A program made the translations under genes and the position numbers. This document shows, piece after piece, positions 89 to 32,094 of a stretch of DNA of 64,000 nucleotides; position 1 is the first letter of the stretch, and every line of letters begins with the position of its first letter. Under the pieces are notes generated by a model. That model was not told the DNA's origin, made no database searches, and worked only from the letters and a program-made list of their open reading frames with translations. The stretch is from IMG/VR virus record IMGVR_UViG_3300045988_147571. One strand, 5' to 3'. The DNA comes from a virus.

Positions 89-862
89 GTGCCCTGTGGT
101 ATATATTGCATTGAAAATAAAATAAATCATAAAAAGTATGTTGGTCAATCTATTGATATAAAATCAAGATGGACTCAGCATAGACATACAAGTTCTTTAG
201 TAAGAGATACATTTCTTTATAGGGCAATGGACAAATATGGTGTTGAAAACTTCGATTTTTATATACTCGAAGAATGTCATCCTAATGAACTGGATGATAA
301 AGAGATTTATTGGATAGCCACCTTAGATACATATAATCATGGGTATAATATGACTCTTGGTGGGTCAGGCTTAGCAGGTTATAAAGCCTACAATAGAAAC
401 TGCATTCCTAAGAATTTTGGGATGCTTTCCAACAATGTAGATGAAACTGTACCTATTATAAAGTTAGATACTAATTATGAAGTATTAGAGTATTATGTAA
501 GTGTTCAAGACTGTGCTAGAGCTAATAATATAGCTTCTACAAACATTTCTAAAACTGCATCAGGGAAAAATGGTACATGTCATGGTTATATATTTATGTA
601 TTTCAATGACATAAAAGATATGACTACTGATGAAATTATAAATTATAGAAAAAATCAAAGAAGTTCTTATAAAAAATCAATTTTAAAATCTGTAAATCTA
701 GTCTCCTCTTCCGGAGAAATTATCAATAATTATGAAAGTATTGCACAGGCAGCTAAAGAACTATGTTTAGATGCATCTTCTATTAGTAAGGTGTGTAAAG
801 GAAAACTAAAACAAACTAACGGCTATAAATTTAGATATGCCGTAGTAAATAATAAAGAATAA
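89..862 (+). CDS. GIY-YIG homing endonuclease (free-standing)
   Basis: N-terminal CGIYCIENKINHKKYVGQSIDIKSRWTQHR (GIY...YVG...R motifs). C-terminal SSISKVCKGKLKQTNGYKFRY resembles a NUMOD/IENR-type DNA-binding helix. Paralog of the ORF at 11061-11843. GTG start with GAGGAA upstream. Confidence 0.85.
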   Translation: MPCGIYCIENKINHKKYVGQSIDIKSRWTQHRHTSSLVRDTFLYRAMDKYGVENFDFYILEECHPNELDDKEIYWIATLDTYNHGYNMTLGGSGLAGYKAYNRNCIPKNFGMLSNNVDETVPIIKLDTNYEVLEYYVSVQDCARANNIASTNISKTASGKNGTCHGYIFMYFNDIKDMTTDEIINYRKNQRSSYKKSILKSVNLVSSSGEIINNYESIAQAAKELCLDASSISKVCKGKLKQTNGYKFRYAVVNNKE

Positions 863-1201: not shown

Positions 1202-1273
1202 GTCCGGTTAGTCTAGTGGTTAAGACACTGCGCTTTCAATGCAGTAACATGGGTTCGATTCCCGTACCGGATG
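1202..1273 (+). tRNA. tRNA-Glu (anticodon UUC)
   Basis: Manual cloverleaf. Acceptor GTCCGGT/ACCGGAT, D arm GTCT-AGTGGTTA-AGAC, anticodon arm CTGCG-CTTTCAA-TGCAG, T arm ATGGG-TTCGATT-CCCGT. Confidence 0.85.
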
Positions 1274-6100: not shown

Positions 6101-6247
6101 GATCGTTCGTATTGTTTCTCAATGCTCTGTTATGGACTCTCAGAACTTCGTAGAGAACATATTAAAAATAAGAAACGTCCCAAAAAAGAAAATATAGCTG
6201 CTGCTATGCCTATTCGTAAAGGTGTAGTAAGAAAAATGTTTAGTTAG
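3182..6247 (+). CDS. terL: terminase large subunit, intein-containing precursor
   Basis: After removal of the intein the P-loop reads ATRNMGK|ST (A-x4-GKS). Walker B is ELCVLDECAF. Lies upstream of the portal. The probable true start is ATG 3203 (AGAGGTG 7 nt upstream). Confidence 0.85.
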   Translation: MQKRCSIMVKNDAGIWVPDYKNIFVLPSKEVMAQRKLDAMEELAEIRAWGLRNPVKWIETMFGVELLDIQKYAIQMSWNKKYALWLATRNMGKALALDTPIPTPDGYKLMSDLEVGDYVFGDDGEPTQIVNTSPIFYNHTCYKVSFEDGEEIIADADHLWEVKAKDYRPTIRVLNTEQMSNNFAHKRKDGKGIEYKYRVKISKPLEFPEKDLPIHPYVLGLWLGDGCSEDGYITSYINDSVDIINNIESFGYFVSSVKDDSGNNYRLRIQDEYGVPLKILLRENDLLSNKHIPYIYFIGSTEQRLHLLQGLMDTDGFVAANSTYCEFSQKSERLIIDFCKLLDSLSIKYSKKYRSTICNGKYFDSYRITFYSSKEFPCVKMQRKFDRLPDKTSERQKYKSIVNIEKVFSVPTKCIRVDNDSHLFLCGTKNTVTHNSTLVGLYIMARTMLVNNCRCYICSGTATQSAETYLKIENIAKDKIESFLGLTDIYLGEVVTTPNSDGWIHNPAGFTYSLYNGSFVKTINSNVDASRGFRAELCVLDECAFLGEEVFQVIEPFTAQDKNFRLGKDKSGKEIDVKALPRELPNQMLYCSSAGEKDGFFYTKYKQYALQQMCGSRDHMVLDVNCDVMMKATKNGRGCDFSLLDKQKVDNAMRENKEKALREYYNIFTSDGGADAIFKRSMIVKNSTIRPPIMFNDTKDRLFAFAYDPARSMDNSFVLVGEYYKDSSDNWRMRIANGINFMDLSKKNKTPMRTPEQVKKLKQLILDYNGDGVDDYTNISNIFIDAGSGGAGVNIADYLMEDWYEEGHEGEQKYLHRGLIDKEQSSDYVKKFPNAVDKIKLLPPTMYKSIIYEAAIEMMRLDLIDFTAEYDNKGYLTMLDIDEKEMAKAKKDLIAKYKDKSMSKGELDRLVEEELQERNLASTKIYKLSPDEELGLVQIDSLKEEMVNMVRKKRESGKDGFELSTEKQNKLHDDRSYCFSMLCYGLSELRREHIKNKKRPKKENIAAAMPIRKGVVRKMFS
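3461..4486 (+). mobile_element. intein (342 aa) with LAGLIDADG homing endonuclease, class-3-like
   Basis: Block A ALALDTPIPTPDG (Ala1). Block B EIIADADHLWEV. Two LAGLIDADG motifs (LGLWLGDGC, LQGLMDTDGF). Block F TKCIRVDNDSHLF. Block G NTVTHN followed by +1 Ser. Inserted between GK and S of the Walker A motif. Confidence 0.85.
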
Positions 6248-6258
6248 GAGGTGAGACA

Positions 6259-7803
6259 TTGGCTATTAAAGAGGAAAAAACAACTCAAGAGATAAAAAAT
6301 TATGCTCTTAAACAACAGGCATTACAAGAAAAATTCGCTCAAGTAAAGCAAGCTGTACAGCTTATTGATTTAACTAAAACAGAAACAAGAACATTTACTG
6401 TATTTAGTAAAGATAAATTACGTCAATATATGCAAAACCCTAAAACCAATGAATCTAACCTTCGTAATTTGAGCAGATTCTTATATAGAGTTTCTCATAA
6501 TTACAGAAGACTTATCTCCTATCAGGCAGAAATGGTAGATTTAACAGCTCTTAATGTTATACCTCAGATAGATTTTATTGAGGATGCGCATGACGATGAA
6601 AAAATAAAGACTAGTTATTTTAATACTTTAGTACAACTTGATAAGATGAATATGCAGTCAGAGATTTTAAAATGCCTATTGATTGCATGGCGTGAAGATA
6701 CATTTTATGGTTATACATATGAAGATGATTCTGGTTTCTTTATTTATCCTCTTGATGGAGATTACTGTAAAGTATCTTCTGTTAATTACGATGGTACTCT
6801 TAATTGTGCTTTTGATTTTAGCTATTTCAGAAGTCATACTGCCGACTTGGAATACTGGGATTCCGAATTTAATTCTAAATACAATTCTTTTCAAAGTGAC
6901 AATACTCTTCGTTGGCAAGAGCTGGACCCAGAAAGAACTTTTGTTATAAAAGTTAATATTGATGATCCAACTCTTAACATGCCACCTCTTTCAGGTTTGT
7001 TCGAACCACTTATTGATCTTATTGATCTCCAAAGTATTCAGTCGGTGAAGGATGACTTATCGATTTATAAACTTCTGGTTGCAAGATTAGAAACACTTAC
7101 TAATTCTGATGAACCAGATGATTTCTCAGTAGATATTGATACAGCTATTGAATATTATAACAGATTGGTCGAATCTCTCCCAGACTGTGTATCTGCAGCT
7201 ATCTCCCCTCTTAAAATTGAACCTATAGAATTTCAAGGTGATCAAACTCAAGATGTTAATAGAATCGCTACTGCCACTTCGAACTTATTTAAAAATTCTG
7301 GTGGTGCACAGATTCTTGATAATGACAAAATCTCAGGTACTACTGCTTTTACTGCTGCTATTCTTTGTGACACAATGATGGCAATTAAAACTGTCCTTCC
7401 ACAGATTGAAGAACGAGTTAATAGATATCTTACTTATACAATTGGTGATGATCATGCAAGGGTAAAATATTTTGAAGTATCTCCTTATACCAAAGCTTCT
7501 AAAAAAGAAGAGCTTATGAAATCTGGAGAACGAGGTGTGCCAGTGAAATTAGCTGTTGCTGCCCTTGATGGTATTTCACCTCTTGAAGCTTTATCTATGG
7601 ATTATCTTGAAAATACTGTTTTGAAGCTCCATGAAACATGGATCCCATTTAGTACTTCTTTCACATTGAGCGGTTCTGCTTCACAACAAGTAATTGATGG
7701 AAAAACAGATGCTACCAATGGAGGAAGACCGGAATCTGATACTCTTACAGATGAAGGTGAGAAAAGTAGGGAATCTGGAAAATCAAGTGAGCAGGAAGGA
7801 TAA
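6259..7803 (+). CDS. portal protein (putative)
   Basis: 514 aa directly downstream of terL. TTG start 7 nt after GGAGG. Acidic, Ser/Gly-rich C-terminus. Call rests on position and size only. Confidence 0.6.
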   Translation: MAIKEEKTTQEIKNYALKQQALQEKFAQVKQAVQLIDLTKTETRTFTVFSKDKLRQYMQNPKTNESNLRNLSRFLYRVSHNYRRLISYQAEMVDLTALNVIPQIDFIEDAHDDEKIKTSYFNTLVQLDKMNMQSEILKCLLIAWREDTFYGYTYEDDSGFFIYPLDGDYCKVSSVNYDGTLNCAFDFSYFRSHTADLEYWDSEFNSKYNSFQSDNTLRWQELDPERTFVIKVNIDDPTLNMPPLSGLFEPLIDLIDLQSIQSVKDDLSIYKLLVARLETLTNSDEPDDFSVDIDTAIEYYNRLVESLPDCVSAAISPLKIEPIEFQGDQTQDVNRIATATSNLFKNSGGAQILDNDKISGTTAFTAAILCDTMMAIKTVLPQIEERVNRYLTYTIGDDHARVKYFEVSPYTKASKKEELMKSGERGVPVKLAVAALDGISPLEALSMDYLENTVLKLHETWIPFSTSFTLSGSASQQVIDGKTDATNGGRPESDTLTDEGEKSRESGKSSEQEG

Positions 7804-10164: not shown

Positions 10165-10625
10165 ATGAAACTTAATTTTTCTAGTAATGAAGTAAGAAAC
10201 ATTTTTGCAGAAAATGATTATGCAGAGTACTCCCAGCTTATGTTTGACACAGCTATGGGAGAAGAAAAAGTATCTACAAAAGATGCTAATGACAAGATCA
10301 GAGAGATCATGTTCTCCGTACTTGGTGTAGATGAAAATTGCACTAAGAAAGAGCTTAGAAAAGCTATTCGTAGACATAAAATTGATGTATTTGAAATCAT
10401 CGAGGAAACAGTAGAGAATCTGCTTGTTTCTGGTTGGGGAGAAAACCCATTCTTCAATGAATTCGTAGAGATTAAATCTATGGCTGATGGTGATACTAAT
10501 GAGTTCTATGTACCGGATGAAGTTATTCTGACAGTGTCTGAACTTGCGGGCAATCACCATGATCTGATCAGACAGCGCCTGGCAGAAGGACAGACATTCT
10601 CTGTTAAAACTTCTTGGTATGGGAT
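10165..10625 (+). CDS. major capsid protein, exon 1
   Basis: Strong RBS GGAAGGAGGAA. The reading frame continues seamlessly in exon 2 after intron removal (...KTSWYG-I-KIYAEYELFMAGRIDW...). Unspliced, the ORF stops at 10635. The capsid call rests on position, expression signals and a downstream terminator. Confidence 0.65.
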
Positions 10626-11866
10626 TAACTTTTAGTCCCCTTAACATTGTGAAATGTTTTGAAATAAATAACGCATTGAATTGCTGGAAAACCTTAAAGC
10701 TAGTTAAACTACAACGTAATCTAAAAAGATAAGCGTGAATGTAACGAAAGTAGAAAAAATTAACTAGATGATACATGGTTCAATCCTAAATATCATGAGT
10801 AATTAGACACCTGTTTATAGGTGTTTTTTATTATGCTCAAAAATAGGCAATCAGCAGCTAAGACTTTTTAAAATGAGTAAAGTTCAACGACTATCTGGAG
10901 ACAGAGTACATATACAAGTGTTTGGTATATGGAAGTGGTGCGCACCCTCGATGGGTGAAGATATAGTCTAATCTTTAGCGAAAGTTAAAGGGCTTTAAGC
11001 CAACACGGAGTAGCGTCCGATTAATATCATTTTTCAAAATAATTATATAAGGAACTATGAATGCAAGAAAAATTATGTGGTATTTATTGTATAAAAAATA
11101 CTTTAAATAACAAAAAATATATTGGTATGTCAAGAGATATAAAACGAAGATGGTCCGAGCATAGAACAGAATTAAATAGCCACACTCATGTTAATCAATA
11201 TTTACAATCTGCATGGGATAAGTATGGTAAATCAAATTTTAAGTTCTATGTTATTGAGTTATGTGAAGAAGAAAAACTTAGTGAACGTGAATGTTATTAC
11301 ATACAATTATATAAATCTTTATCTCATGAAAATGGATACAATTTAACAACTGGTGGTGAAAATACATCTATTGGTAAATCTGTTATATATTTGAAAGATG
11401 GAACGATTTATAACTATGTAAACGAAGCTGCTCAAGAAGCTAATGTTCAGTCCGTAACTATGATTAGTTGGTGCCGCAAGAAACATAACTATATGTATTT
11501 AGATGAATATAACACTCTTTCTAAAACAGAAAAAGAATACTGGAAAAATTTTAATTGGGAAGAATTTGACCATCAAAAATTAAGTCAAGCACATTCTCGT
11601 GAAAATCTCTCAAGGGTCACAATAAACAAATTAAGTCAAGCTACATCTGGAGATAATAATCCAAGAGCACTTAAAGTTTATTGCCCACAGCTAGATGAAA
11701 CATTTGATTGTATAAAATATGCCTCTGACAAATATGGAGTTAATAGAAGTAGCATATCTTCGTGTCTTAAAGGAAGACTTAAAAGTGCCGGTAAGCATCC
11801 CGTTACCGGAGAAAAACTAACATGGGAAACAGTTGAAAAATGATATTGAATTGTTAAATATAAATG
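10626..11866 (+). mobile_element. group I intron in the capsid gene, carrying a GIY-YIG HEG
   Basis: P1: exon GGGAU (10621-10625) pairs with GUCCC (10635-10639), with a U-G wobble at the splice site. P10: UUUUA (10630-10634) pairs with exon 2 UAAAA (11867-11871). Omega-G at 11866. J8/7-P7 is GAAGAUAUAGUC (10957-10968), with the P7 partner GACUAU at 10889-10894. Confidence 0.85.
11061..11843 (+). CDS. intron-encoded GIY-YIG homing endonuclease
   Basis: MQEKLCGIYCIKNTLNNKKYIGMSRDIKRRWSEHR. C-terminal SSISSCLKGRLKSAG DNA-binding motif. Lies in the 3' (P9-side) part of the intron and ends 23 nt before the 3' splice site. Confidence 0.85.
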   Translation: MQEKLCGIYCIKNTLNNKKYIGMSRDIKRRWSEHRTELNSHTHVNQYLQSAWDKYGKSNFKFYVIELCEEEKLSERECYYIQLYKSLSHENGYNLTTGGENTSIGKSVIYLKDGTIYNYVNEAAQEANVQSVTMISWCRKKHNYMYLDEYNTLSKTEKEYWKNFNWEEFDHQKLSQAHSRENLSRVTINKLSQATSGDNNPRALKVYCPQLDETFDCIKYASDKYGVNRSSISSCLKGRLKSAGKHPVTGEKLTWETVEK

Positions 11867-19159: not shown

Positions 19160-21694
19160 ATGGCTGATTATACAATACAAGTAGGCGTAGAAGTTGAAGA
19201 TAGTAAATTGGATGCGCTGGAAACACGAATTAATTCATTAAAAGATAAACATGTTAAACTCAATGTGGATTTTGGTAATAGTAAGCAGTTGGCTAGAAAC
19301 GCTCAGACAGCGGTAAAAACTATTAATAAAGCTACTGTAAAAGCTGCCAAAAACAGTCCTTCAATTAAGGGGGCCAATCTTGTAGAACAAATGGTTGATC
19401 CCGAAAAAGCTTTAAAAGCAATGTCTAGTACAGTTGGCAAGCTATCTAAATATCAGGGAAAACTTGATTTAGGAGAAGTAAGACTTTCAGTTAATCAAGG
19501 GATTATGGGAGAACTAGATGGTCTTCTTAGTAAATTAAATGAAATTAAAGCAACTGCTAAGAACATGGGATCCATCAAACTTACTGTTGGTGATAATATT
19601 AAAACACAAGACGGTAAAATAGTTGTTGGATCAAATAGCAGTGCCTCTACTGGTTCTGTCAGATCATCTGGACTAACACTTAGACAAGCGCAGGCCGAAA
19701 TCAAAAAAAATATGAAAACCATTGGTACTTTACAAGAACAGTATATCAATGGTCATGTTGATGAATCTACATATAGACAGTCAAAAAAAACTATAGGACA
19801 AAGAAATGCTTATTTAGCAAGAATGGTGCAAACTCAAGGTACTGCTTCTGACTGGGTTACTTCTGCTACTGATTTTAGAGAAGCTCAAGCCAAGAATCGA
19901 GCTGCCTATAGAGAGATGATGTCTAGTGCTGATGCCTATGATAAAGTAATTAGTGATTTGGGTGAAAAACAAAAAACATTTAATGAAGCTGCTCAAGTAT
20001 ATAATTCTAACAGTAGAAGTCCATTAAATAAGACTTTAGGACCCGGATATCAAGCAAGGCTTACAGCTTTTAATGATGTCTATGGTCAATTAAAAGAGTC
20101 ACATGATAAAATCTCCACGCTTACTGGAGATGAAAAAGATCTTGAAAAAGTACGTTTCAGCGCTCTTAAATCTGAAGCTAATCGTCAAGCCAGACAGCTT
20201 AATAATGTGAGTCAGTTTTTCTCAAAAACTCCAAATAAATATAGTAGATCTGAATTTGTAGGTACAGACTTAGATGTGACTTCTGATAAAGTTCAGAATA
20301 AAATGTCACAAATGGTTGATAATCTTGCTAATGGCAGTAGATATACTAAAGAATTTAATGCAGCACAAGGAAAAATGTATGCTACAATAGACAGAGGCTC
20401 TGGTGTATTTGAAAAATATCAGCTTGCATACAAAAATGGGCCAGGTAATATCGATCAGTCTCTTAGCAAAGTCACTCAGAGCGTAAAACCTCTTTCTAGT
20501 TACATTTCTGAAATGGGACAAAAGTTCCGTAGTCTTAGCCAGTATCTTATCAGTAATTTCGGATTCCAAGCTTTAACAACAGGTATCAGATCAGGTGTTA
20601 CATCTATAAAAGAATTAGATTCAGCAATGACTGAATTAAAGAAAACCTCTGAAGGTACAAAACAGGAATATAGAGACTTTACTACTCAAGCTAGGAGTGA
20701 CGCTAAAGATATCGGTAGTACGACTACTCAGATTACTAATAGTGCTGCTGATTTCTCACGTCTTGACTACACACTTGGCGAATCTCAAACTCTAGCTAAA
20801 AATACTGGTATATTAAAAAATGTATCAGAATTTGAGTCTATAGATGATGCAACAACTGCTATGATTTCTATGATGAAAGCATATGATGTAAAAGTTGATG
20901 ATTCTATGGATCTCATTGATAAAATGAATCTTATTGGTAACAACTATGCAATTTCTACAGATGGAATTGCTACCGCTTTACAAGATTCAGGTTCAGCATT
21001 GGTAGCAGCGGGAAACGACTTTGACAAGTCAGTTGCTCTTGTGACGGCTGCTAATAGTGTAGTACAGGACCCATCAAAGGTAGGCGCTGGTCTTAGAACA
21101 ATTGCTTTACGACTTAGAGGCACTTCTGCTGAAGAATTATCTTCTATGGGTGAAGATACAGAAGGTCTTGTAGAGACCACTTCTAAACTTAATTCAAATA
21201 TTAAATCTCTTACTGCCGTTAACGGTAAGGCTGGAGTTTCTATTCTTGATATGAATGGAAACTATAGAGATACTTATGATATTTTAAAAGATATCTCTCA
21301 GGTTTGGGATGATATTGGTAAGCAAGATTTGGCAGATGGTCAGAATAGACAGGCTGCTCTGCTTGAAATGATGGCAGGAAAAAATAGAAGTAATATTCTT
21401 GCATCCATATTACAGCATCCTGAATTACTTACAGATGTTTATAATGATTCCGCAAATAATTATCAAAATTCAGCTCAGAACGAGCTTAATACATACCTTG
21501 ATTCTATCGAAGCAAAAACAACTAAAATTAAAGAATCTTGGTCACAGTTATGGCAATCAGAAGGTAGTACTAATACTTTTAAAGGATTGCTTGATATTGG
21601 CAACGGCGCTGTAGGACTCTTAAATGGTTTAGGACTCAATAAAACCTTAGCCGGAGTCGGCGGTATGCTTGTTAGCCATGCTATGAACTGGGGT
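19160..21694 (+). CDS. tape measure protein, exon 1
   Basis: TP901-type TMP core (DIGSTTTQITNSAADFSRL...GIATALQDSGSALVAAGNDFDKSVALVTAANSVVQDPSKVGAGLRTIALRLRG). Unspliced, the ORF ends at 21721 inside the P1 loop. Confidence 0.85.
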
Positions 21695-22114
21695 GGGACA
21701 AATTATCAGTTGGTCCTTTAGAAAACGCCCCATGTAACCTGGTGGTGACACGGAACGATCTCATATGAGAAAGGGGTTACTAAGCAAACAACCGAAACTG
21801 TCTTTATTCGAAGGAATAGAGAAATGCTTTTAATTTGGCATTCAGGGTGAACCGAAGTATATACTACTCCCCTATTACAGTAATGTAATAGGTATAGTAA
21901 CAACGTATATATATGGGTAATCTGCAGCGAAGCTTCTTTATTTTATAGAGAAGAACGTTCATCGACTATAATGGGAACTTGGTCTCCGGATCAAGAAGGA
22001 ATAGTCAGGACTGTTAGGCAGCTTACGCCGAATAAATTAAAGGGTAAATACATCTTACTCTTGTAAGCAATCTTACCTTATGTGCAAAGGTGATGTAAGC
22101 ACAAAAGCAAGAGA

Positions 22115-22225
22115 TTACTCTCCTGCTTCTTTATGTTTAATATAATATGTACAATCTTCATTTTCAAAGTAAGGACATTCCTCTTCCTTACATTCTTTGT
22201 AGAGAGGACATTCTAATATTTCCAT
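22115..22225 (-). CDS. 36-aa Cys-containing micro-ORF
   Basis: MEILECPLYKECKEEECPYFENEDCTYYIKHKEAGE. Perfect GGAGG 10 nt upstream of the ATG. Below the size cut-off of the ORF track. Confidence 0.45.
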   Translation of the reverse strand: MEILECPLYKECKEEECPYFENEDCTYYIKHKEAGE

Positions 22226-22300
22226 AATCTTTAAACCTCCATAGTATAGTTTTGTTGACTGTCTAAAAGAAATTATTGATTAATTTTCAGAATATAACCT

Positions 22301-22852
22301 TTAATGATTTAAAAAACATTGATCTAACTCTAATAATATTTTTTCCAAATCATCTATATTGATAATAAGAAAAAATTTTCCTTTATGATCTTCTCTAATA
22401 TCTTCGTCTTCAAATTGTATAGCTTTTATTTCAGTACTTGCGTTATGAGTTAATGGATGAATCATTAAACGATCATGGCAGACAGCATTCCTTAAATGTT
22501 TAATTACATTTCTTTCACAATTATTTTCTTTGTATGTGTTTTTATAGATCTCATTATACGTCTTATTAGTGAGTCTTTTTAATGTAGGCACATTCTGAAA
22601 ATTATCTTTTCTATTAGATAGATAATTAAAATATTTCTCTTTTGGAAAAACAAGTAACCCCAAAAAAGAATTTATTAATTGAGTGACCTCATAACATTTT
22701 TGATACTCAAATTCATTGGCAAACATAATTCTTTTTAAACAAGAAATCTCTTTATTTTTATTATGTCCAGCTAATTTTTGAATCATGAAATAATTCATTT
22801 GTGTCCTACAAATAAACTCTTTAACATAATCATCATCTTTAAAATTACTCAT
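22301..22852 (-). CDS. HEPN-like protein (Rx4H motif), predicted RNase
   Basis: The C-terminal half carries IKHLRNAVCHDRL (R-x4-H). About 180 aa, predicted helical. The start lies 6 nt after the upstream stop, with GGTGA inside the upstream gene. Confidence 0.5.
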   Translation of the reverse strand: MSNFKDDDYVKEFICRTQMNYFMIQKLAGHNKNKEISCLKRIMFANEFEYQKCYEVTQLINSFLGLLVFPKEKYFNYLSNRKDNFQNVPTLKRLTNKTYNEIYKNTYKENNCERNVIKHLRNAVCHDRLMIHPLTHNASTEIKAIQFEDEDIREDHKGKFFLIINIDDLEKILLELDQCFLNH

Positions 22853-22858
22853 AAACTA

Positions 22859-23362
22859 TCACCAAGTATATCCACAAGAGTTACACTTAAAGCTCTTGTT
22901 AATCTTCTTACTGAATAATCCCAATATTCCTACTGATACCATACGTTCTCCTGTAGAGATTTTACGAATATTGGTGGAACCACATGTTGGACACTTAGGC
23001 CCAGTAGAGAATTTCTGAGCATTCTGTTTGGCATACCACTGGTCTGTTATCCTGTTTTGCTCTTCTATTCCTTCAGGAGATTCACTATATTTTCTTTTTT
23101 TAACGGCAGAGTAATCTACTTCATTGTCTAACTTTCCATAAAAATATTTTTGCCTAAATATCTCAGATGATTCCAAATGACTAGGACAATGACCATCATG
23201 AGTTTTCTCATATTCTTTTGATAGCTCCATATATGCTGTAGACCAATCAATGCCAGTACCTATATAAGTTCCAGTTTCACAGGTATAACATTTATCTCCT
23301 ATTTTATAAGAAGAAGATGTACTAGTCTTTCCACATTTATTACAAAATAATAATTCTTCCAT
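22859..23362 (-). CDS. double zinc-ribbon protein
   Basis: CNKCGK...CYTCETG at the N-terminus. CPTCGSTN...hydrophobic VSVGILGLF...CNSCGYTW at the C-terminus. Confidence 0.55.
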   Translation of the reverse strand: MEELLFCNKCGKTSTSSSYKIGDKCYTCETGTYIGTGIDWSTAYMELSKEYEKTHDGHCPSHLESSEIFRQKYFYGKLDNEVDYSAVKKRKYSESPEGIEEQNRITDQWYAKQNAQKFSTGPKCPTCGSTNIRKISTGERMVSVGILGLFSKKINKSFKCNSCGYTW

Positions 23363-23403
23363 ATTGTTCCTTTTTATTATATATAGTAATTAAGATTAGC
23401 TAT

Positions 23404-23432
23404 ATTATATCACACAGTTTGGTTTTCGCCAA
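23404..23432 (-). promoter_or_regulatory. sigma-A/sigma-70-like promoter for the antisense cassette
   Basis: The minus strand reads TTGGCG-17 nt-TATAAT with a TG extension (TGaTATAAT). The -10 lies in the last 18 nt of the intron and the -35 in the first 11 nt of TMP exon 2. Confidence 0.45.
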
Positions 23433-26400
23433 GAATGAAGATGGAGAAATTTTACCGCAATCACGAAGAGCTCAACGTAATGCTGCTATAGCGAAAGGTT
23501 ATGTAGAAGCCAATAAAAATTGGCAAGCATATTCAGATGATTTAGAAGTTCTTAAAGAGCTTAACAAGCAACTTGATAATAATGGTCAGGCCATTACAGA
23601 CAACGAGCAACGTATGGCCAAAGCAAATGAAGTAACGAAGAATGCTAGTCAAAGAGCTAAAGATTATGGTAAACAAATGGCCACTAATGCTAAGACTCTC
23701 ACTGATTTTAAAAGAGAAAATGAGGTAGAGAAACCTGATCAACAGAAACAAGGGAAATGGTCCGATGGTCTAAAAAGTATGGCATCTGCAGGTCTCTCAA
23801 TGATTGGCAATGCTTTTATTTCCGCTGGTGTTGGAATGCTTGTGCAAGGAGCTTTCTCATTGCTTGGTAAAGGCATTGACGCTTTCGTTCATAAAAATGA
23901 GAACTTAATTGCTAAAGGTCAAGAAGCAAAAGAATCCATTCAATCCCAAACTAAAGCCTATGAAGACCAGAAAGCATCTCTTGGAGAACTTACTTCCAAA
24001 TACACAGAATTATCTAAAGGCGTAAAAATATCTGGTAATTCTATTAAAAATATTAGTCTTACAGATGATGAATATAAGGATTTCTTAAATACAAGTAATC
24101 AGATTGCTGCCGCAGCACCTAGTCTCACACGTTCATGGGACTCCCAGGGTAATGCCATTCTTAATGCTGGGACTAATGCTGAGGATTTAAACACTCAGAT
24201 TAATGATTACTTGAAGTTACAGAGGAACCTTACTTACTATGATACTAAGAAAAATATTAGTAATCAGTATGAGGGATATGAAACTGCTTTAGGTACTAAC
24301 GAGCGTCAAAAAAATGATTACAAAGATAAATATGATGCAGCAAAATTTAAAGTTAATTCTATGCAGAATTTTTCGAATATGCTTAAAAAGCAAAAAAAAG
24401 GAGAAGATACCTTTAGCTACACATTGGATCAAGCTGCATATGATGCACTCGGCAATACCTTTGGAAAAGCAATAAAAAACTATACACAATCTGCTGATGG
24501 TCAAACAATAACTTTGGAATTTGATGGCAAACAATTAGATTTTCTTAACAACGAAGCAGCCAACATATTAAGTTCTGATAGTAGTGAACTTCAAGAAGCT
24601 CATACCAATTTAGTTAATACACAAGAATCTATAGATGCAGCAAAAAGAGAAATGGTTTCTTCTATCAAGTCAATGGCAAGCACTATTGATTCTTTTGATA
24701 GCTGGGACGATCAAGATAAAGCATCAGAATTTCAATCACAGTTGAATAGTATGCTTAATTCTACGGACAATACCAGATTGCTTAATGATTTTAAAGAATC
24801 CGGTAAAGATATGGACACATGGCTTCGCAATAACATTGTGAACCCTATGTCAACTGCAAATTCAGATGAACAAAAACTTTGGGAACAAGCATTTGAAATG
24901 GAGCCTAAAGATAAAGAAACAGTTCAAGAATTTGCCGCTCGTAGAAATAATCTTTTCGATCAGATTGCTGCTATTTCTGACAGTGATTTTTGGGATAGAG
25001 ATACACTTGGAGAAGCTTTTGGCTTTAACCATACAGAATATGATGATAATGGAAAAGCTGAATTTGTATGGGAAAATCAAGATAAGTTAAATCGAATACA
25101 AGACGCATTGAAAAATGCAAAAGCCAGTAAAACAAAAGGCGATGCTTCTGATGTAAGAACAGATCTTAATAATATGACCCCTGATGAGTTGGACATAGCT
25201 GTACAAGTTATTACTGACTCAGATGCTTTAACTTCTATAGATTCTTTTTATGAGGCATTCGAAAAGGCTAAACAAGCAGCTAAAAATATGAGTGATCAGG
25301 CAGCCGTTTCTTTAGATTCAATGGAAACTAAAGTATCAACTGCTAAGTCTACTCTTTCTTCTATGGGAACTATTCTTACAGAGACTACTTCTGCAGGCGG
25401 AGTTTCTAAAGACAATGTTAAGATTCTTTCTACTGCTTTCAAAAATGTGAAAGACCCTCGTGGCATTGAGCAAAATGTTAATGATTTATTCACCACTACT
25501 TCTGATGGTATCAAACTAAACATAGATGCTTTGAAAACCTTTACGGAATATCAGACTGAAGCCACTGATGGAGATTTCGAAAAGGGTATTAAGTTACAGA
25601 CTAAAGCTATTGCCGAGCAAGCAGAAGAAACAGATAAAGCTTGGAAAGCTATTGCTAAAGCCGATGACAAGGAAGCAGCTAGAGCAACTTATAACGCAGA
25701 AAAAGATAAATTAAAAGATGCTAGAAACGAATATTTATCTTATATGCAATCTCAGTCTGAATGGCAAGCAACTAAGAAACAGCAACAGGAACTTCTTTCT
25801 TATTATTCTCAGTGGCAACGTGCCCAGAGTACGGAGAATGCCGGAGATAAATATAATAACATTGTTGCCGGACTAAAAAATGCTAAAGATGCATATGATA
25901 AAGGTCTTGTAGGTACAGATGATTTTAAATCATTTGCTGCTCTTATTTCTCCTACAGGTTCAGATGATAGAGCAAACTTTGCAGAGAATTATGGTAAAGC
26001 TGTAAGATACCTCACAGAAGATAAGACAGGTGTTAATAATTTCTTAGCTGATCTTAAATCTAAGGGTATGGCATCTTATGATGATGCAAGTAAAAGATGG
26101 TCATTTGACATAGATGATATGAGTAAAGCCGCTCGATCAATGGGAATCAGCAAAGAATTCATGAGTGCTAACTTCGGTCGTCTTCGTGATTATGGCATTG
26201 ATAATAATTTTATATCATCTACAGAAGAAGGTATAGATAGGGTTCAGGAACTTACTTCTGCTCTTTCAGACGAACAAAAACGACTTGAAGAATTAAAGAA
26301 TACGGATAGCACCAATACTACTGCTATTACTGCTTCTGAGGACAAAGTTAATAAATATAAACAGGATTTAAAAGAAACCTATGATAATATGGGTGACTAC

Positions 26401-29400
26401 TCTGAAGATGCTGCACAGACTGCTGTTGATAATTTTAATTCGGCAGCAATGGGTGTACAATCATATCAGAATGCAATAGAAAATGTTAAAAAGAATGAGA
26501 ATCTGACAGAAGCTCAAAGAACTTCTGCAATTAATCAATTAATAGCTAAACAGGAAGAATTAGCTGCCACTTACGGTACTACTGTTAAAGAATTATTAGG
26601 AGCAGATGTATCTTCATTAATGGATGGCATTATAACAGATTCTGCTTCTGTTACTACTGCTCTTGATGGTATCAATAAAGCATATGAAGAACAGAACACA
26701 GATGTTACTTCTTTAGTTGACACTCTTGGAAAATATACTTCTGAACAGTTAGAAGGTATAGATTTCAATGATGGTAAGTGGGATACTGAATTAGGCGATG
26801 CTGAAAAAGCTGTTGAGTCTTTATGTGAGAAGCTTGGTTTAACAAAAGACCAAGCTCGTTCTGTTATTGAGGCTTTAAAAGAAGCTGGTAAATTAAAAGA
26901 TTCTGAGGAAAGTAGTGATTCCTCTAAAGAAACTACTAAGGGGTCTTGGGAGAAACCACAGACTGCTGAACAGATGGGATTCGGTGATGATCCTGACAGA
27001 GCTGCTGAATATACACATTCATTGGAAGCTCTTACTGCTGCCCATAAAGAAAATGATGCCGCTACTGAAAAGTCATTTGAAACCCTTTCTAAATATAATC
27101 GTACACAATTAGAGGGTATCAAATTAAATGATGGTGCTTATAATGTTGAGGGTATAGAACAGGCTGAAGATGCCATACAACAGTTAGCAGATAAGACTCA
27201 GTTGTCTAAAGATCAGATTCTTACTGCTCTTGAAGGTCTTGGTGTTTTGAAAGTTAATGCTCCTACTATGGATGCGACAAAAGGTTTGGAAGATTTAGTT
27301 TCTGAGGCTAAAGATGCACAGGACGAATTGTCTGATCTTACTGGTAAAACATACACATTTGATTTTGATACTACTGATTTAGATACTGCTCATAAACAGG
27401 TAGCTGACCTGCAGGAAGAAGTAAATAAATATAGAGATCGTGATGGTAAATACCATCCAGAGATTACTGGCGGAGAACAGGTGCAATCAATGTACAAAGC
27501 CGCTATTGCTCAAGAACAGAATGCTGAATATAGTTCTTCTGCTATTGGACAGTCTAGTTTATCATCAGATGTCGTACAAGCTGCTCAAGATTTTATGACA
27601 GCTAAGAATGAAATGGATCAGCAAACTCAACTTTATCAAAATGGAATGGATAATACTCTTGATAAAGCTACAGAGAAAGCTAACGCCGCATTTGAATCTT
27701 TACAACAAGCTCAAACTGATTCGGGTATTGAACTTGTAGATACTAATAATATTCAAAAAGCTGAAAATCAGTTACTTTCTATGACTGATAAAGATTTACA
27801 GGCTAAAATAGATGTTCAAGCAGATACAAGCGATGCCGAAGCAGAATTAGATGTCCTAGAAGAATTGGACGGATCTACACTTAAGCTTACTTGCGAATTA
27901 TCGGATGAAGATAGTTTTGAACGAGCTAAATCTGCTATTGAATCTATGCCAGCTAACACCGTTACAACCGTAGATATGGAAGTTAATGGTGAAGAGGATG
28001 TAGAGAAAGCAACAGAGCTTATTGAATCGGCACCTACTGATGGTACTGAGCTAGTTGTTAACTGTCATGTTGATAATGCTGAAGACTTAGATAAAATAAA
28101 TGAAGCTGCTGCAACTGCCAAAGCAAACGGAGCAAATATTAAAATAAACGCTACTGTTGGTGAAGTGGATGCTTCAACTGCTACGAGTACAGAACCTGTT
28201 AAAATGACAGGTGAAATAGAAAGTGCAGAATATACTGGCGCTCCAGTTGAAATAGAAGCTACAGCAAATATTACTAATGTGACTAATGGTGATTCCGCAG
28301 AAGTTAATCCTACAATAAATACGGATGAAGTGGATAACTATACTGTCGATGACAAAGAAGTAAATGTTGATTTTAAAAAGAATTCAGATGAAGTTGATAA
28401 TTATCAACCGGACGATAAAGATGCAACTGCCTATTATGGAGTAGATTCTTCAGCACCAGATAGTTATCAGCCGAGTGATAAAGATGCATATATCACGTAT
28501 CATATACGTGTTGAAGGAGGAATAGCTGCTGGCATTCCAAATAGTCCTTCTGGAGGATCTGGTGGTTCTTTTGCTACAGGTACAATGGCATCAGTTGCTC
28601 GTGCAGATGGTACAATGTACAATGCACCTTGGAACTATCAACTTCTCTCTTCTGCTTTTGCAAAAGGAGATGCTGCTTTACATAAAGACGAAAAAGCGTT
28701 AGTAAACGAAGTCGGGACCGAATCTATTGTGCGTGACGGTACTTGGTTTACGATTCCTGGCGGAGCACATCTTGAGAATCTTAAAAAAGGAGATATTATT
28801 TTCTCTGCTCAACAGACTAAAGATTTACTTGAACATGGCGCAACACCGGGACATGCTAGAACTTATGCACAAGGCACAGCCCCAGGATTAAGTATCTCTC
28901 CTGCTTTCTCATCTGGTTCTAGTTCTTCTACTAACACAGAATTAGATAACAAAATCAAAGAAGTTAGTACTCAGGCAAAAGACTGGATAGACGTAGCTCT
29001 TGATCGTTTAGAGAGAATCGTTGAAAAATACAAAGACACTGCTGAAAGTGACTATTCCAACTATAGAGCTTCTATTAAGGCTTACAATTCAGCACTTAAA
29101 AATCTTAAAAACCAATTAAAGACTCAAAAAGATTCCAGAGCAAAGTATGTAACTAAAGCAGACGAAGTCGCTTCTGCTGTCGGATTGTCTGACGATTTAA
29201 AAAAGAAGGTTCAAAATGGTACTATCAATATAGAGAACCTGTCAGAAGATGATAAAAAACGTGTTGATGCATATCAGGAATGGTATGAAAAAATCTTAGA
29301 CTGTGACAAAGCTATACGTCAGCTCACTATTTCGCAGAAAGATTTAGCTAAAGCTAAAGTTGATCGGGTTACTGAAGCTTATGACACTGTTATAGGCAAA

Positions 29401-32094
29401 CGTGAAAGTAAAGCTGAATATTACAAAGCAAAACAGGAATTAAGAATCACTCAAGGTTACAATCAGAAACCTGGATCTATTTATGAGAAGTATATAAAAA
29501 ATGAACTTTCTTATACTAATAAACAGAAGAAACTTACTGATAAGGAAATAAAAACCTATAAAGGTAAGATGAAAGAATATCTTGCAGAAAATGGTCATAA
29601 AACTGTTGATCCTGAATATCAGAAAATGAAGAAACAGCTTTATGATCTGGAAACCTCAGCTGTTAAATTAGAGAATGAAGCCGCACAGTTAAGACAGGCT
29701 CTACAAGATAATCGTGAACAGATTAAACAATGGGCGGTTGACCGTTGGGAAAGAGCTGGTAGTAAACAAGATGCAGTAATTAATTATAAGACTGTTTCTG
29801 ATGATCCAAACTATCAGATCAAGGAAAAGGATTACACTGAGAGAATCAAAACAAATAATCGTCAGATTATAGCTTTACAGAAGTTGAGAGCAGAAAAAGC
29901 TGAGTACTATGACAGTTATTTTAAGAGCGGAAACAACGAAGAAGCTCAGAAATATCTTGAAGCTATTGCTCAGATTGACGAACAGATTCTAAAACTTGGA
30001 GCTAGTACAGAAGAGTTAAAGAATCAAATCATGGAACTTCGTTGGAAGCCATTTGAAGATATTCAAGATGACCTTTCTAATGTAATCAGTGAGTATCAAA
30101 CCATGCAGAAGCTTCTTGGTGATACAGAAAGTTTCTACAATGACGATGGATCTTTCACTGAAAATGGTTTGACAAATATCCTTCTTTTACAGGAATCTAT
30201 TGATGTTACTAAGCAGAAAATAGCTAACTATAGAGAAGCTTTAGACAAACTAGATGAACAGTATAAGAATGGTTGTTATAGTCAGGAAGAATATACTGAG
30301 AAATCTAAAGAGCTATTAAACGGATTACAGCAAGAGTCTGCTGCCCTCTCTGATTTGCAACAGAATATGCTTACAATGTATGAGACTCAGGTTAAAACTG
30401 AGAATGATCTCTTACAGAAAAATATTGATAAGCGTTTGGAAGCTCTTGATGCTAAAGAGAAGTATTATGAGTATGATAAGACTTTGAAAAAGAAGTCTAA
30501 AGATATTAATACTCTGAAGGCACAGATAGCAGCCCTTGAAGGAACAAGCAATGCTGCTGCCAAAGCCCGTTTAGAAAAATTAAAGGCTGAATTAGCAGAA
30601 TCTGAAGAGGATATGCAAGATACTGTTCATAATCATGAAACTGAAATGAAGAAAACAGGTTTTGAGAATCTTCAATCAGATGCTGAGAAAGCTCTTGATA
30701 ATACCTTAGATGCACTGAAAAAGAATACCAATTTTCAGCAAGCAGTTATTGGTAATATGTTATCCAATGTAACTGCTAATTATGATAGTACCTATAGTCA
30801 TCTGCATGATGTTATGGATCAATATGGAGTACAGGTGTCTACTACATTTGATAAGATGATTACTAAGTCTGCTAATTTTAATACGTCCTTAGTAGCACAG
30901 ACTAAAGCTATGCAAGATGTTATTAATATGGCTACTAAACTTCCTGCCAATCTTGGCGGGACTGCTACTGACATTGTAAATAATACTGCTAAAGTTAATG
31001 GTACTTCAACCGGAGCCGGTAATGTAACGCCGGGAAAAGTAAATGATACGACTTACTCTCTGAAGTTAAATGCATCAGAAATTTATCTAACATACAGTCA
31101 TTTGAAATATTCATTGAAAGCTACATGGTCTCCAAGTAAACCGGAACACTCTGATATTGAATGGTCGAGTACAGATAAATCAGTTGCAAAGGTCTCAACT
31201 TCTGGTGTTGTTACAGGTGTAGCTGCGCCACTTAGTAAACTTGGATTAATGTCAAGAGATGAATCTTTGACTAGAAAATGTAAGATTATTGCAAATGGTG
31301 GTCCGGGTCTTGCAAAAGCTGAGTGTACGGTACATATTATGCCAGATGAACATTATAATGCCATTAAGCAATATGCTGATAAAGTTGGCATCGATACTTC
31401 TAAAGAAGGCAATAATCTTAGAGATGCTATGGAATACGCTTATAAAAATGGTGCATTCCGAAGCAATCAGTCAAGTACCGCTGTTGAAGGATTCCAGAAA
31501 GCTTATCTAAAAGACTGGTTTAATGCTCTTCCAGACCGTCCTAACGGTGCAACGGATGTTCCTAGTGGAGTTAGTCAGCTAGCTGGATATTTCTATTCCA
31601 AAGGTAAACAAGTCACACGTAATGATATGCAGAAACTTGCTGATATCCTTCAGATTAAAACTCCGGGAGTTGGAAGTTATGATACCTGGGGTGGCACACT
31701 TAAAAATAAGATTCTGAAAGCATACAAAGCTTATGGTTATGCTACTGGTGGCGTAATCAATAGACTTGTTCCTGCCAATATGGAAACACTCTTAGGTAAA
31801 GCAATCATCTCCAATGGAGATCAAGGTTTTATTGGCGCTAAAGTTGGAGAAACCGTAATGACTGAAGAGTTCACTCGTTTGCTCAAACCTTCTATTGCTG
31901 CAATGAGCGACTTTACCAATATGTTTAACCCAACTACTCCTATTGCTACCACAAATAATGATTATTCTATCAACAATGAGGTAAACATTAATGTAGCAAG
32001 TATGAGCAGTGATTTAGACATCCAAGATGTCGCCAATAAAGTCTCTACAATTATTAATAAGAATATGACTAGAGACTGGAGAAAACTTAGATGA
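23422..32094 (+). CDS. tape measure protein, exon 2
   Basis: 2890 codons in frame with exon 1. No credible RBS or ATG at the ORF-track start (TTG 23419). Long coiled-coil regions, a Big_2-like Ig domain (DIEWSSTDKSVAKVSTSGVVTGV) and a hydrophobic Gly-rich segment near the junction. Confidence 0.85.
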   Translation, partial: VFAKNEDGEILPQSRRAQRNAAIAKGYVEANKNWQAYSDDLEVLKELNKQLDNNGQAITDNEQRMAKANEVTKNASQRAKDYGKQMATNAKTLTDFKRENEVEKPDQQKQGKWSDGLKSMASAGLSMIGNAFISAGVGMLVQGAFSLLGKGIDAFVHKNENLIAKGQEAKESIQSQTKAYEDQKASLGELTSKYTELSKGVKISGNSIKNISLTDDEYKDFLNTSNQIAAAAPSLTRSWDSQGNAILNAGTNAEDLNTQINDYLKLQRNLTYYDTKKNISNQYEGYETALGTNERQKNDYKDKYDAAKFKVNSMQNFSNMLKKQKKGEDTFSYTLDQAAYDALGNTFGKAIKNYTQSADGQTITLEFDGKQLDFLNNEAANILSSDSSELQEAHTNLVNTQESIDAAKREMVSSIKSMASTIDSFDSWDDQDKASEFQSQLNSMLNSTDNTRLLNDFKESGKDMDTWLRNNIVNPMSTANSDEQKLWEQAFEMEPKDKETVQEFAARRNNLFDQIAAISDSDFWDRDTLGEAFGFNHTEYDDNGKAEFVWENQDKLNRIQDALKNAKASKTKGDASDVRTDLNNMTPDELDIAVQVITDSDALTSIDSFYEAFEKAKQAAKNMSDQAAVSLDSMETKVSTAKSTLSSMGTILTETTSAGGVSKDNVKILSTAFKNVKDPRGIEQNVNDLFTTTSDGIKLNIDALKTFTEYQTEATDGDFEKGIKLQTKAIAEQAEETDKAWKAIAKADDKEAARATYNAEKDKLKDARNEYLSYMQSQSEWQATKKQQQELLSYYSQWQRAQSTENAGDKYNNIVAGLKNAKDAYDKGLVGTDDFKSFAALISPTGSDDRANFAENYGKAVRYLTEDKTGVNNFLADLKSKGMASYDDASKRWSFDIDDMSKAARSMGISKEFMSANFGRLRDYGIDNNFISSTEEGIDRVQELTSALSDEQKRLEELKNTDSTNTTAITASEDKVNKYKQDLKETYDNMGDYSEDAAQTAVDNFNSAAMGVQSYQNAIENVKKNENLTEAQRTSAINQLIAKQEELAATYGTTVKELLGADVSSLMDGIITDSASVTTALDGINKAYEEQNTDVTSLVDTLGKYTSEQLEGIDFNDGKWDTELGDAEKAVESLCEKLGLTKDQARSVIEALKEAGKLKDSEESSDSSKETTKGSWEKPQTAEQMGFGDDPDRAAEYTHSLEALTAAHKENDAATEKSFETLSKYNRTQLEGIKLNDGAYNVEGIEQAEDAIQQLADKTQLSKDQILTALEGLGVLKVNAPTMDATKGLEDLVSEAKDAQDELSDLTGKTYTFDFDTTDLDTAHKQVADLQEEVNKYRDRDGKYHPEITGGEQVQSMYKAAIAQEQNAEYSSSAIGQSSLSSDVVQAAQDFMTAKNEMDQQTQLYQNGMDNTLDKATEKANAAFESLQQAQTDSGIELVDTNNIQKAENQLLSMTDKDLQAKIDVQADTSDAEAELDVLEELDGSTLKLTCELSDEDSFERAKSAIESMPANTVTTVDMEVNGEEDVEKATELIESAPTDGTELVVNCHVDNAEDLDKINEAAATAKANGANIKINATVGEVDASTATSTEPVKMTGEIESAEYTGAPVEIEATANITNVTNGDSAEVNPTINTDEVDNYTVDDKEVNVDFKKNSDEVDNYQPDDKDATAYYGVDSSAPDSYQPSDKDAYITYHIRVEGGIAAGIPNSPSGGSGGSFATGTMASVARADGTMYNAPWNYQLLSSAFAKGDAALHKDEKALVNEVGTESIVRDGTWFTIPGGAHLENLKKGDIIFSAQQTKDLLEHGATPGHARTYAQGTAPGLSISPAFSSGSSSSTNTELDNKIKEVSTQAKDWIDVALDRLERIVEKYKDTAESDYSNYRASIKAYNSALKNLKNQLKTQKDSRAKYVTKADEVASAVGLSDDLKKKVQNGTINIENLSEDDKKRVDAYQEWYEKILDCDKAIRQLTISQKDLAKAKVDRVTEAYDTVIGKRESKAEYYKAKQELRITQGYNQKPGSIYEKYIKNELSYTNKQKKLTDKEIKTYKGKMKEYLAENGHKTVDPEYQKMKKQLYDLETSAVKLENEAAQLRQALQDNREQIKQWAVDRWERAGSKQDAVINYKTVSDDPNYQIKEKDYTERIKTNNRQIIALQKLRAEKAEYYDSYFKSGNNEEAQKYLEAIAQIDEQILKLGASTEELKNQIMELRWKPFEDIQDDLSNVISEYQTMQKLLGDTESFYNDDGSFTENGLTNILLLQESIDVTKQKIANYREALDKLDEQYKNGCYSQEEYTEKSKELLNGLQQESAALSDLQQNMLTMYETQVKTENDLLQKNIDKRLEALDAKEKYYEYDKTLKKKSKDINTLKAQIAALEGTSNAAAKARLEKLKAELAESEEDMQDTVHNHETEMKKTGFENLQSDAEKALDNTLDALKKNTNFQQAVIGNMLSNVTANYDSTYSHLHDVMDQYGVQVSTTFDKMITKSANFNTSLVAQTKAMQDVINMATKLPANLGGTATDIVNNTAKVNGTSTGAGNVTPGKVNDTTYSLKLNASEIYLTYSHLKYSLKATWSPSKPEHSDIEWSSTDKSVAKVSTSGVVTGVAAPLSKLGLMSRDESLTRKCKIIANGGPGLAKAECTVHIMPDEHYNAIKQYADKVGIDTSKEGNNLRDAMEYAYKNGAFRSNQSSTAVEGFQKAYLKDWFNALPDRPNGATDVPSGVSQLAGYFYSKGKQVTRNDMQKLADILQIKTPGVGSYDTWGGTLKNKILKAYKAYGYATGGVINRLVPANMETLLGKAIISNGDQGFIGAKVGETVMTEEFTRLLKPSIAAMSDFTNMFNPTTPIATTNNDYSINNEVNINVASMSSDLDIQDVANKVSTIINKNMTRDWRKLR

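Follow-up and report, generated by a model that had tools for sequence, protein, structure and literature searches.

A HEPN-family gene in an exchangeable slot of an antisense operon within a predicted group I intron of a phage tape-measure gene

What is a gene for a predicted RNase of the HEPN superfamily doing inside a late structural gene of a phage, and is it paired with the zinc-ribbon gene that lies beside it? The question was raised by an open reading frame (ORF) of 183 amino acids at positions 22301–22852 of IMG/VR virus record IMGVR_UViG_3300045988_147571, a stretch of 64,000 nucleotides that was analyzed at its full length (the window). A first-pass annotation had described the product as an apparently helical HEPN-like protein with an Arg-x4-His (Rx4H) motif, encoded within the intron of a late structural gene and partnered by a zinc-ribbon protein instead of the usual MNT nucleotidyltransferase. 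Overall, and with confidence a little above even, the analysis favored an exchangeable, predicted conflict RNase carried in an antisense three-gene operon embedded in the intron, and not a classical toxin–antitoxin pair. The antisense orientation, the three-gene operon with its own promoter-like site and the variable middle slot of that operon were absent from the first-pass annotation. The HEPN protein belongs to a known family and what stands out is its setting in an antisense, variable-cargo intron operon. The phage is an uncultured siphophage of roughly 90–150 kb. Its lineage is known from metagenomes only, and neither megablast of the region nor tblastn of the HEPN protein and the spliced junction gave a match among 50,697 known phage records.

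HEPN Gene and Encoded Protein

The ORF was found on the minus strand, complete from ATG to stop codon, and its assignment to the HEPN pEK499_p136 family drew on profile matches, homologues, an AlphaFold2 (AF2) model and substitution rates. The motif lies in IKHLRNAVCHDRL (residues 117–129), which contains R121 and H126 and belongs to the C-terminal third of the protein, within the C-terminal half where it had first been placed. The codons of R121-N-A-V-C-H126 occupy 22475–22492 (minus strand), and the motif was classed as catalytic-type from its conservation and its position in a predicted helix. On its own, the bare Rx4H pattern was weak evidence of HEPN identity since about 0.3 copies are expected by composition at this length and the protein holds another copy (R114..H119) that is not conserved.

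Comparison with Pfam profile hidden Markov models showed a match of 56.9 bits to PF18736 (HEPN pEK499_p136) with an E-value of 2.6e-15, against a Pfam gathering cut-off of 26.6, and the alignment covered profile positions 5–144 of 152. HEPN homologues were few (27 clusters), and 21 of 21 homologues matched PF18736 and no other family, with a best E-value of 3e-25. Alignments of 21 and then 23 diverse members, with identities down to 22%, showed that R16, N20, E55, T57, Q58, L59, N61, P70, N122 and H126 were invariant in both and that R121 was conserved in at least 90%. The hallmark of the superfamily is Rx4-6H with N, D or H straight after the arginine, N being typical (PMC3710099), and here R121-N122-A-V-C-H126 has a polar asparagine directly after R121. 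Invariant residues E55, T57, Q58, L59 and N61 fall in predicted helix 2 (residues 55–68) within an EVTQLIN motif, and E55 is, by its place in this helix, the counterpart of the conserved acidic residue that HEPN proteins have near the active site. Membership of the PF18736 family was established by these profile and alignment results, and the identification of a HEPN-family protein with an intact catalytic-type RNxxxH motif was borne out. The ratio of nonsynonymous to synonymous substitution rates (dN/dS) was 0.04–0.27 with eight relatives of 79–96% nucleotide identity, which indicated purifying selection. The GC content of the gene was 24.1% compared to 35.4% for the window.

The AF2 model (pLDDT 87, pTM 0.82) showed helices at residues 7–27, 33–45, 55–68, 89–94 and 113–125, then three strands and a last helix at residues 166–182. 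The description as apparently helical was right for four long helices and missed three beta strands that are inserted behind the motif. The core of HEPN domains has been described as four helices in up-down order, with helices 2 and 3 separated by an insert and the motif closing core helix 3 (PMC3710099). The order in the model was helix 7–27, helix 55–68, an insert, helix 113–125 ending in the RNAVCH motif, the beta insert and helix 166–182, with the invariant glutamate in the would-be core helix 2. The model is consistent with a HEPN fold in helix order and motif position, and independent confirmation at the fold level was not obtained from the structure searches described below. HEPN enzymes act on RNA (PMC3710099). 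The superfamily is marked by RNase activity that needs no metal and depends on the R and H of the motif, with a composite active site formed in the dimer. By analogy with characterized HEPN enzymes, the protein would most likely cleave RNA as a metal-independent endoribonuclease by means of R121, N122 and H126.

Tape-Measure Gene and Group I Intron

The HEPN gene does lie within a group I intron that splits the tape-measure gene, as far as sequence comparison and predicted splicing can tell, so that the earlier placement in an intron of a late structural gene stood. Exon 1 (19160–21694, plus strand, 845 codons) encodes a PhageMin_Tail protein (PF10145, E-value 6.2e-17). It was annotated as an ORF of 853 amino acids at 19160–21721, of which the TAG codon at 21719–21721 would be intronic. 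Exon 2 (23422–32094, plus strand, 2890 codons) continues the frame of exon 1 and was called as an ORF of 2891 amino acids at 23419–32094 with a TTG "start" just upstream of the predicted junction. Neither an ATG nor a ribosome-binding site is suitably placed for it. The predicted intron (21695–23421, plus strand) is 1727 nucleotides long with a terminal omega-G at 23421, and was delimited by the Rfam match, covariation and the P1 and P10 pairings. Its catalytic core is at the 5′ end, followed by a 3′ extension of approximately 1.3 kb with three antisense genes. The ribozyme core from P2 to P9 (21794–22028, plus strand, P7 strands GACUA and UAGUC) was positioned by the Rfam alignment, and conserved hairpins extend beyond it to approximately 22100.

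A match to the full length of model RF00028 was obtained at 25.4 bits (E-value 0.0011 in a 3 kb search). A Rfam scan of four related loci returned nothing despite the same core at 95–98% identity, which was attributed to search filters and E-value scaling and was not counted against the intron. The segment 21695–22100 was 95–99% identical in at least 30 related loci and 75–76% identical in the divergent loci L002 and L003, and this structured segment was more conserved than the coding flanks. RNAalifold with a six-sequence alignment gave 128 pairs, of which 19 were compensatory, with 99% of cells paired, compared to 0–3 compensatory pairs and approximately 40% of cells paired in slid controls; the covariation stems from essentially two lineages.

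The P1 helix and internal guide sequence (21688–21732, plus strand) were identified by pairing and compensatory change. Exon bases CUGGGGU (21688–21694) pair with GCCCCA in the guide, which is the 3′ part of GAAAACGCCCCA (21721–21732), and a U21694·G21727 wobble marks the 5′ splice site exactly at a codon boundary. In the alignment this wobble occupies columns 15/48, and a G-C pair is replaced by A-U at columns 16/47 in the divergent clade. For P10, GAAAAC just 5′ of the guide complements the first six bases after G23421. This pairing covaries over three exon-2 alleles, with GAAAAC facing GUUUUC or GUUUUU and GAAAAU facing AUUUUU in L002, and the G before exon 2 is conserved in all alleles. 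The exons join in frame (GGT to GTT, ...AMNWG to VFAKNEDG...) to give a protein of approximately 3735 amino acids. With boundaries 21694/23422 on the plus strand, the predicted spliced RNA reads ...CUGGGGU followed by GUUUUCGCC..., and the junction written out is ...AACTGGGGT followed by GTTTTCGCCAAG.... Another guess at the splice sites, at 21711–21717 (after CAGUU or GGU) and 23417 (after CACACAG), offered no P1 and no P10; boundaries 21694/23421 were preferred because both pairings are present there with covariation.

The same region could be read as two tape-measure-like genes on either side of an intergenic "moron" island, the ribozyme-like segment being a relic or a chance resemblance. 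The Rfam score is lower than the gathering score, gene callers give two ORFs in every contig and no uninterrupted close homologue was found, all of which would suit such an arrangement. Against this, the structured segment is better conserved than the coding flanks and holds 19 compensatory pairs, the P1 U·G falls at a codon boundary, P10 fits the first six bases of exon 2 and covaries in three alleles, and the second ORF lacks an ATG and a ribosome-binding site, with its TTG just upstream of the junction. In addition, the alignment of a distant fragment without interruption (P0197) spans the junction, which reads G-GVFAK straight through. Two adjacent genes without an intron were considered very unlikely, and the split tape-measure gene was retained. 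P0153 and P0162, considered as intron-less alleles, were gene calls running into the 3′ end of the intron.

The window contains another group I intron (10617–10990, plus strand), which passed the Rfam gathering score with 71.3 bits, interrupts a gene starting at 10165 (phrog_4088) and has a sense-strand GIY-YIG/NUMOD homing endonuclease gene (11061–11843, plus strand) 3′ of its core. Since this intron is arranged likewise, the core-first layout is native to the phage.

Organization of the Antisense Operon

All three genes of the operon are antisense to the intron, in the order ZnR, HEPN and pep36. The first encodes the zinc-ribbon protein noted at the outset (ZnR, 22859–23362, minus strand, 167 amino acids), which was recognized by a weak Zn_ribbon_IS1595 match and has 329 homologues. 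It consists of an N-terminal zinc ribbon with a helical domain and a C-terminal zinc ribbon, and shows two CxxC...CxxC ribbons. Its stop codon is 6 nucleotides before the HEPN ATG. The AF2 model of ZnR had a pLDDT of 83, and Foldseek against the PDB and BFVD returned nothing significant beyond generic zinc ribbons; no antitoxin-like fold or family was found with Pfam, PHROGs or Foldseek. The last gene, pep36 (22115–22225, minus strand), encodes 36 amino acids with four cysteines (MEILECPLYKECKEEECPYFENEDCTYYIKHKEAGE) and is present in every related locus. It has a ribosome-binding site (GGAGG) 8 nucleotides upstream and its dN was far below its dS, and no family match was found in NCBIfam or PHROGs.

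The best site in a scan for sigma70-type promoters (23404–23432, minus strand) straddles the 3′ splice site. It has a -35 element TTGGCG, a spacer of 17 nucleotides and an extended -10 element TGaTATAAT, with 10 of 12 consensus matches plus the TG, and every allele keeps the extended -10, L002 in the form TGcTATAAT. We infer that this site acts as a promoter. If it is used, the antisense transcript is complementary to intron sequence only.

The missing MNT partner was also confirmed here. No MNT or other nucleotidyltransferase domain, as a HEPN–MNT module would contain, was found in either neighbor of the HEPN gene with Pfam, NCBIfam or PHROGs. Domains of homing endonucleases (GIY-YIG, HNH, LAGLIDADG, His-Cys box, PD-(D/E)xK and EDxHD) were absent from HEPN, ZnR and pep36.

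Comparison of Related Loci

A total of 22 IMG/VR contigs were retrieved with ZnR alone and were thus sampled without regard to HEPN. They share a layout of exon 1, ribozyme core, an optional sense-strand gene (p154), pep36, variable genes, ZnR, 3′ splice site and exon 2. ZnR and pep36 were present in 22/22 loci and HEPN in 8/22. The 14 loci without HEPN carried p100 (100 amino acids, predicted to have a transmembrane segment), some of them along with p305 (305 amino acids), and the variable slot of other related loci held HExxH-motif proteins of 215–225 amino acids. Identities were mosaic, with 96–99% for the core, 99–100% for the end of exon 1, 51–96% for the start of exon 2, 52–98% for ZnR and 73–98% for HEPN, and those of ZnR, HEPN and exon 2 were uncorrelated across loci.

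Pairwise blastn of loci with and without HEPN showed that homology breaks within the C-terminal ribbon of ZnR (approximately 22955–22987) and resumes at 22254, the downstream breakpoint being 29 nucleotides upstream of the pep36 gene. The exchangeable block defined by these breakpoints (22255–22954, minus strand) comprises one version of the ZnR C-terminal tail (v1), the HEPN gene and 46 nucleotides downstream. In HEPN-less relatives a different tail (v2) and other cargo replace it. On these alignments, the HEPN gene is low-GC (24%) exchangeable cargo in the middle slot of the operon.

The tight operon, with a gap of 6 nucleotides from ZnR stop to HEPN start, would suit a toxin–antitoxin or addiction module in which ZnR or pep36 neutralizes a HEPN toxin and the pair stabilizes the phage or its intron. 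Toxins are numerous among HEPN proteins (PMC3710099), and in the close clade the v1 ribbon (...CGYTW) occurred with HEPN in 15/15 cases and the v2 ribbon (...CGAKF) in 0/18. However, ZnR and pep36 were kept in 14/22 introns without HEPN, and the divergent loci L002–L004 combine a v2-like ZnR with HEPN. L005 and L006 retain a v2-tail remnant (CPHLGKTYQCCKCGAKF) fused behind HEPN, and L014 has a 60-nucleotide scar made of the v1 end and the HEPN start behind its 305-amino-acid cargo. Because of the breakpoints in the 3′ end of ZnR, this remnant, this scar and the pairing in L002–L004, the association of v1 tail and HEPN points to physical co-transfer and not to coupling. Distant PF18736 genes adjoin a large serine recombinase gene, or genes for a resolvase and for a WYL regulator, and none of them lies beside a zinc-ribbon gene. 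No tandem RNA repeats were found, and an RNA-repeat antitoxin of type III was rejected; ZnR showed no antitoxin-like fold or family. ZnR and HEPN were not gained and lost together as the two partners of a toxin–antitoxin system would be. A module of this kind was judged quite unlikely. With ZnR in 22/22 loci and HEPN in 8/22, ZnR is, by this comparison, a neighbor and not a dedicated antitoxin. The first-pass claim of a functional partnership found no support, given the loci without HEPN, the block breakpoints and the other neighbors of distant family members.

The position of HEPN 3′ of the core, where the other intron of the window has its GIY-YIG endonuclease gene, would be that of a homing nuclease, maturase or mobility factor serving the intron. 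Such a role is extremely unlikely for a gene that is antisense and lacks a homing-endonuclease domain, whose superfamily enzymes act on RNA, and without which 14/22 near-identical introns persist. The exchangeable-cargo reading was kept here as well.

The alternative cargos gave no credible match with PADLOC, the sole match being GajA for a protein of L037 (E-value 0.015). PHROGs and Pfam gave little for them, with the exceptions of an acetyltransferase-like sense ORF of 196 amino acids in L002 and a helix-turn-helix (HTH)/NUMOD-like ORF of 377 amino acids.

Several other features of the related loci were recorded. The optional 154-amino-acid sense ORF p154 (phrog_33355) occurs in about half of the introns between pep36 and the core, for example at 6544–7008 (minus strand) in L011. 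It goes with a distinct pep36 allele (83–86% versus 97–100% identity) and may encode a homing endonuclease, either degenerate or of a novel kind. The last 245 amino acids of exon 1 were 99–100% identical in loci with an uninterrupted exon 1, compared to 51–96% for the first 300 amino acids of exon 2 (23422–24320) in L001–L036; so strong an asymmetry hints that a recombination boundary, or else a co-conversion tract, lies within the intron. Exon 1 is interrupted a second time in L005, L007, L011–L014, L016, L020, L023, L031 and L033 (for example L011, 7444–9160). In this doubly split form, a 760-amino-acid piece is followed by ORFs of 57 and 377 amino acids and by a 98-amino-acid piece ending at the intron studied here. 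The 377-amino-acid ORF has HTH/NUMOD/HNH-like PHROG matches, and the interruption is probably another intron or an endonuclease insertion. Finally, the distant loci L037–L042 have larger antisense islands beside the tape-measure gene (for example L037, 5647–10663), in which the ZnR C-terminal ribbon recurs as several paralogues, one of them a stand-alone version of 51 amino acids, alongside two HExxH proteins. One of these islands has a 379-amino-acid ORF that is a candidate IS200/IS605 TnpB-like gene.

Proposed Function

In the favored reading, the antisense operon would be transcribed from its own sigma70-type promoter at the 3′ edge of the intron, independently of the late genes and probably earlier. 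As a conflict effector, the HEPN RNase would be directed at competing phages, or at host or foreign RNA, and splicing would render the insertion harmless to the tape-measure protein. Late transcription across the intron would turn the cassette down by convergent transcription and sense/antisense pairing. This damping may limit self-damage, by analogy with the unrelated prophage HEPN system Tha. From the same analogy, we infer expression before late transcription and damping by the late pre-mRNA. The suggested role in conflict draws on the neighborhoods reported for the pEK499_p136 family, namely restriction-modification (R-M), Pgl and ART/Macro (PMC3710099), on the recombinase and WYL neighbors of distant members and on the precedent of Tha (PMC11087260).

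Several results weigh against this reading. Foldseek of the HEPN model against the PDB and BFVD gave no significant match, known HEPN folds included, and PDB sequences searched with profiles built from narrow and broad alignments yielded nothing significant either. PADLOC, NCBIfam and PHROGs returned nothing significant for the HEPN protein, and no PADLOC model matched it. The RF00028 score of 25.4 is below the Rfam gathering score of 50, and no intron-less close homologue was found in INPHARED or in a set of 5.8 billion proteins. The total number of sites found by the promoter scan in the region was not above the shuffled expectation. A functional link with the zinc ribbon could still account for the perfect association of v1 tail and HEPN within the close clade. 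In addition, no integrase was found in the 64-kb window, and a scan of GTDB representative genomes turned up no close homologue.

A different role would be that of a housekeeping or host-takeover RNase, which cleaves host or early phage transcripts or processes RNAs of the locus and so times expression. T4 RegB is an RNase of comparable role. The catalytic-type motif is intact and under purifying selection, no lysogeny genes were seen and no prophage copies were found in GTDB representatives, and a defense gene in the style of prophages would be of less use to a phage that is purely lytic. The HEPN gene is nevertheless dispensable, as most close relatives, with intron cores 96–99% identical, carry unrelated cargo instead. 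Moreover, it is foreign to the phage by GC content and its family is reported in conflict-system contexts. A housekeeping role was given a low probability, and a conflict effector was preferred.

A more far-reaching version of the proposal was regarded as unlikely, though not strongly so. In this version the 3′ extension of the intron would be a dedicated, recombination-prone cargo bay with a fixed frame, interchangeable conflict genes and an automatic late shut-off, and HEPN would be a Tha-like effector. The frame would consist of the promoter at the 3′ splice site, ZnR first and pep36 last, and the contents would be the HEPN RNase, a membrane protein, HExxH proteins or the 305-amino-acid protein. 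Splicing would free the tape-measure mRNA both of the insertion and of the antisense complementarity. The HEPN protein would act in abortive infection or superinfection exclusion, with the location in the intron, and not an antitoxin, preventing self-harm.

To our knowledge, the group I introns of bacteria and phages carry homing endonucleases or nothing, and an antisense, promoter-bearing operon with variable cargo in a phage group I intron was not described in the literature searched. If the proposal is true, introns are another safe harbor in which phages gather and swap conflict genes with essential genes unbroken, and the avoidance of autoimmunity by the "noncontiguous operon" of Tha extends to a new setting. 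The poorly studied PF18736 family would gain a tractable natural context. Since phages with and without HEPN exist with otherwise near-identical introns, the function of the family is directly testable.

Other Features of the Window

The large terminase subunit (3182–6247, plus strand, PHROG E-value 1.7e-45) contains a LAGLIDADG_3 domain at residues 303–375, which suggests an intein. A GIY-YIG homing endonuclease with an I-HmuI-NUMOD region, free-standing or intron-associated, was identified at the edge of the window (89–862, plus strand), and a tRNA gene at 1202–1273 (plus strand). Two ORFs (55239–57983 and 58289–60697, both plus strand) matched the ALK/LTK glycine-rich domain PF12810 with E-values of 1.8e-153 and 2.5e-97 and adjoin tail-fiber-like genes. 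A radical-SAM/4Fe-4S protein is encoded at the end of the structural region (61468–62802, plus strand). Minus-strand ORFs without a family match occupy gaps in the plus-strand array at 51114–51452 and 1220–1765, and may be further antisense accessory genes.

Comparison with Known Systems

The protein resembled the pEK499_p136 family (PF18736; Anantharaman et al. 2013, PMC3710099) in its full-length profile match above cut-off, the invariant RNxxxH motif, the acidic residue of helix 2 and its nature as a small stand-alone protein on mobile elements. The family was reported in operons with R-M, Pgl and ART/Macro components on plasmids and chromosomes, whereas the gene studied here is in a phage, antisense in a group I intron. 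The phage subfamily also has an extra helix (residues 33–45) that distant members lack.

Tha is an anti-phage HEPN RNase of Staphylococcus aureus prophages that is triggered by tail proteins, and its antisense "noncontiguous operon" balances immunity against autoimmunity (Rostol et al. 2024, PMC11087260). Both are phage-borne single-effector HEPN proteins with RNxxxH, no MNT partner and an antisense arrangement, the RNase activity here being predicted. Homology to Tha was rejected, with an hhalign probability of 0.15 against Tha-1 of 80alpha and with Tha-1 matching DUF4145/HepT-like families and not PF18736. Tha has 301 amino acids with an N-terminal sensor region, lies in a lysogeny module and has an overlapping antisense inhibitor gene (ith), whereas this HEPN protein has 183 amino acids and is encoded in the late region. 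No conserved antisense ORF overlapping HEPN in the manner of ith turned up in the ORF list, which was not examined in depth for it.

Like classical HEPN–MNT (HepT–MntA) systems, the locus encodes a small HEPN protein with an Rx4H motif, and a second small gene lies closely upstream in the operon. Here, however, the upstream gene encodes a double zinc-ribbon protein that has no nucleotidyltransferase domain and occurs independently of HEPN.

Finally, the T4 nrdD/sunY intron is a phage group I intron whose ORF lies 3′ of the core, as in the intron at 10617–10990 of this window. The predicted intron shares with introns of this type a 5′ core, a long coding 3′ extension, a remote 3′ splice site and an in-frame position within an essential gene. 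The known examples carry one homing endonuclease gene on the sense strand, whereas the intron of the tape-measure gene carries an antisense operon with a promoter-like site, in which no gene is an endonuclease gene and the middle slot varies.

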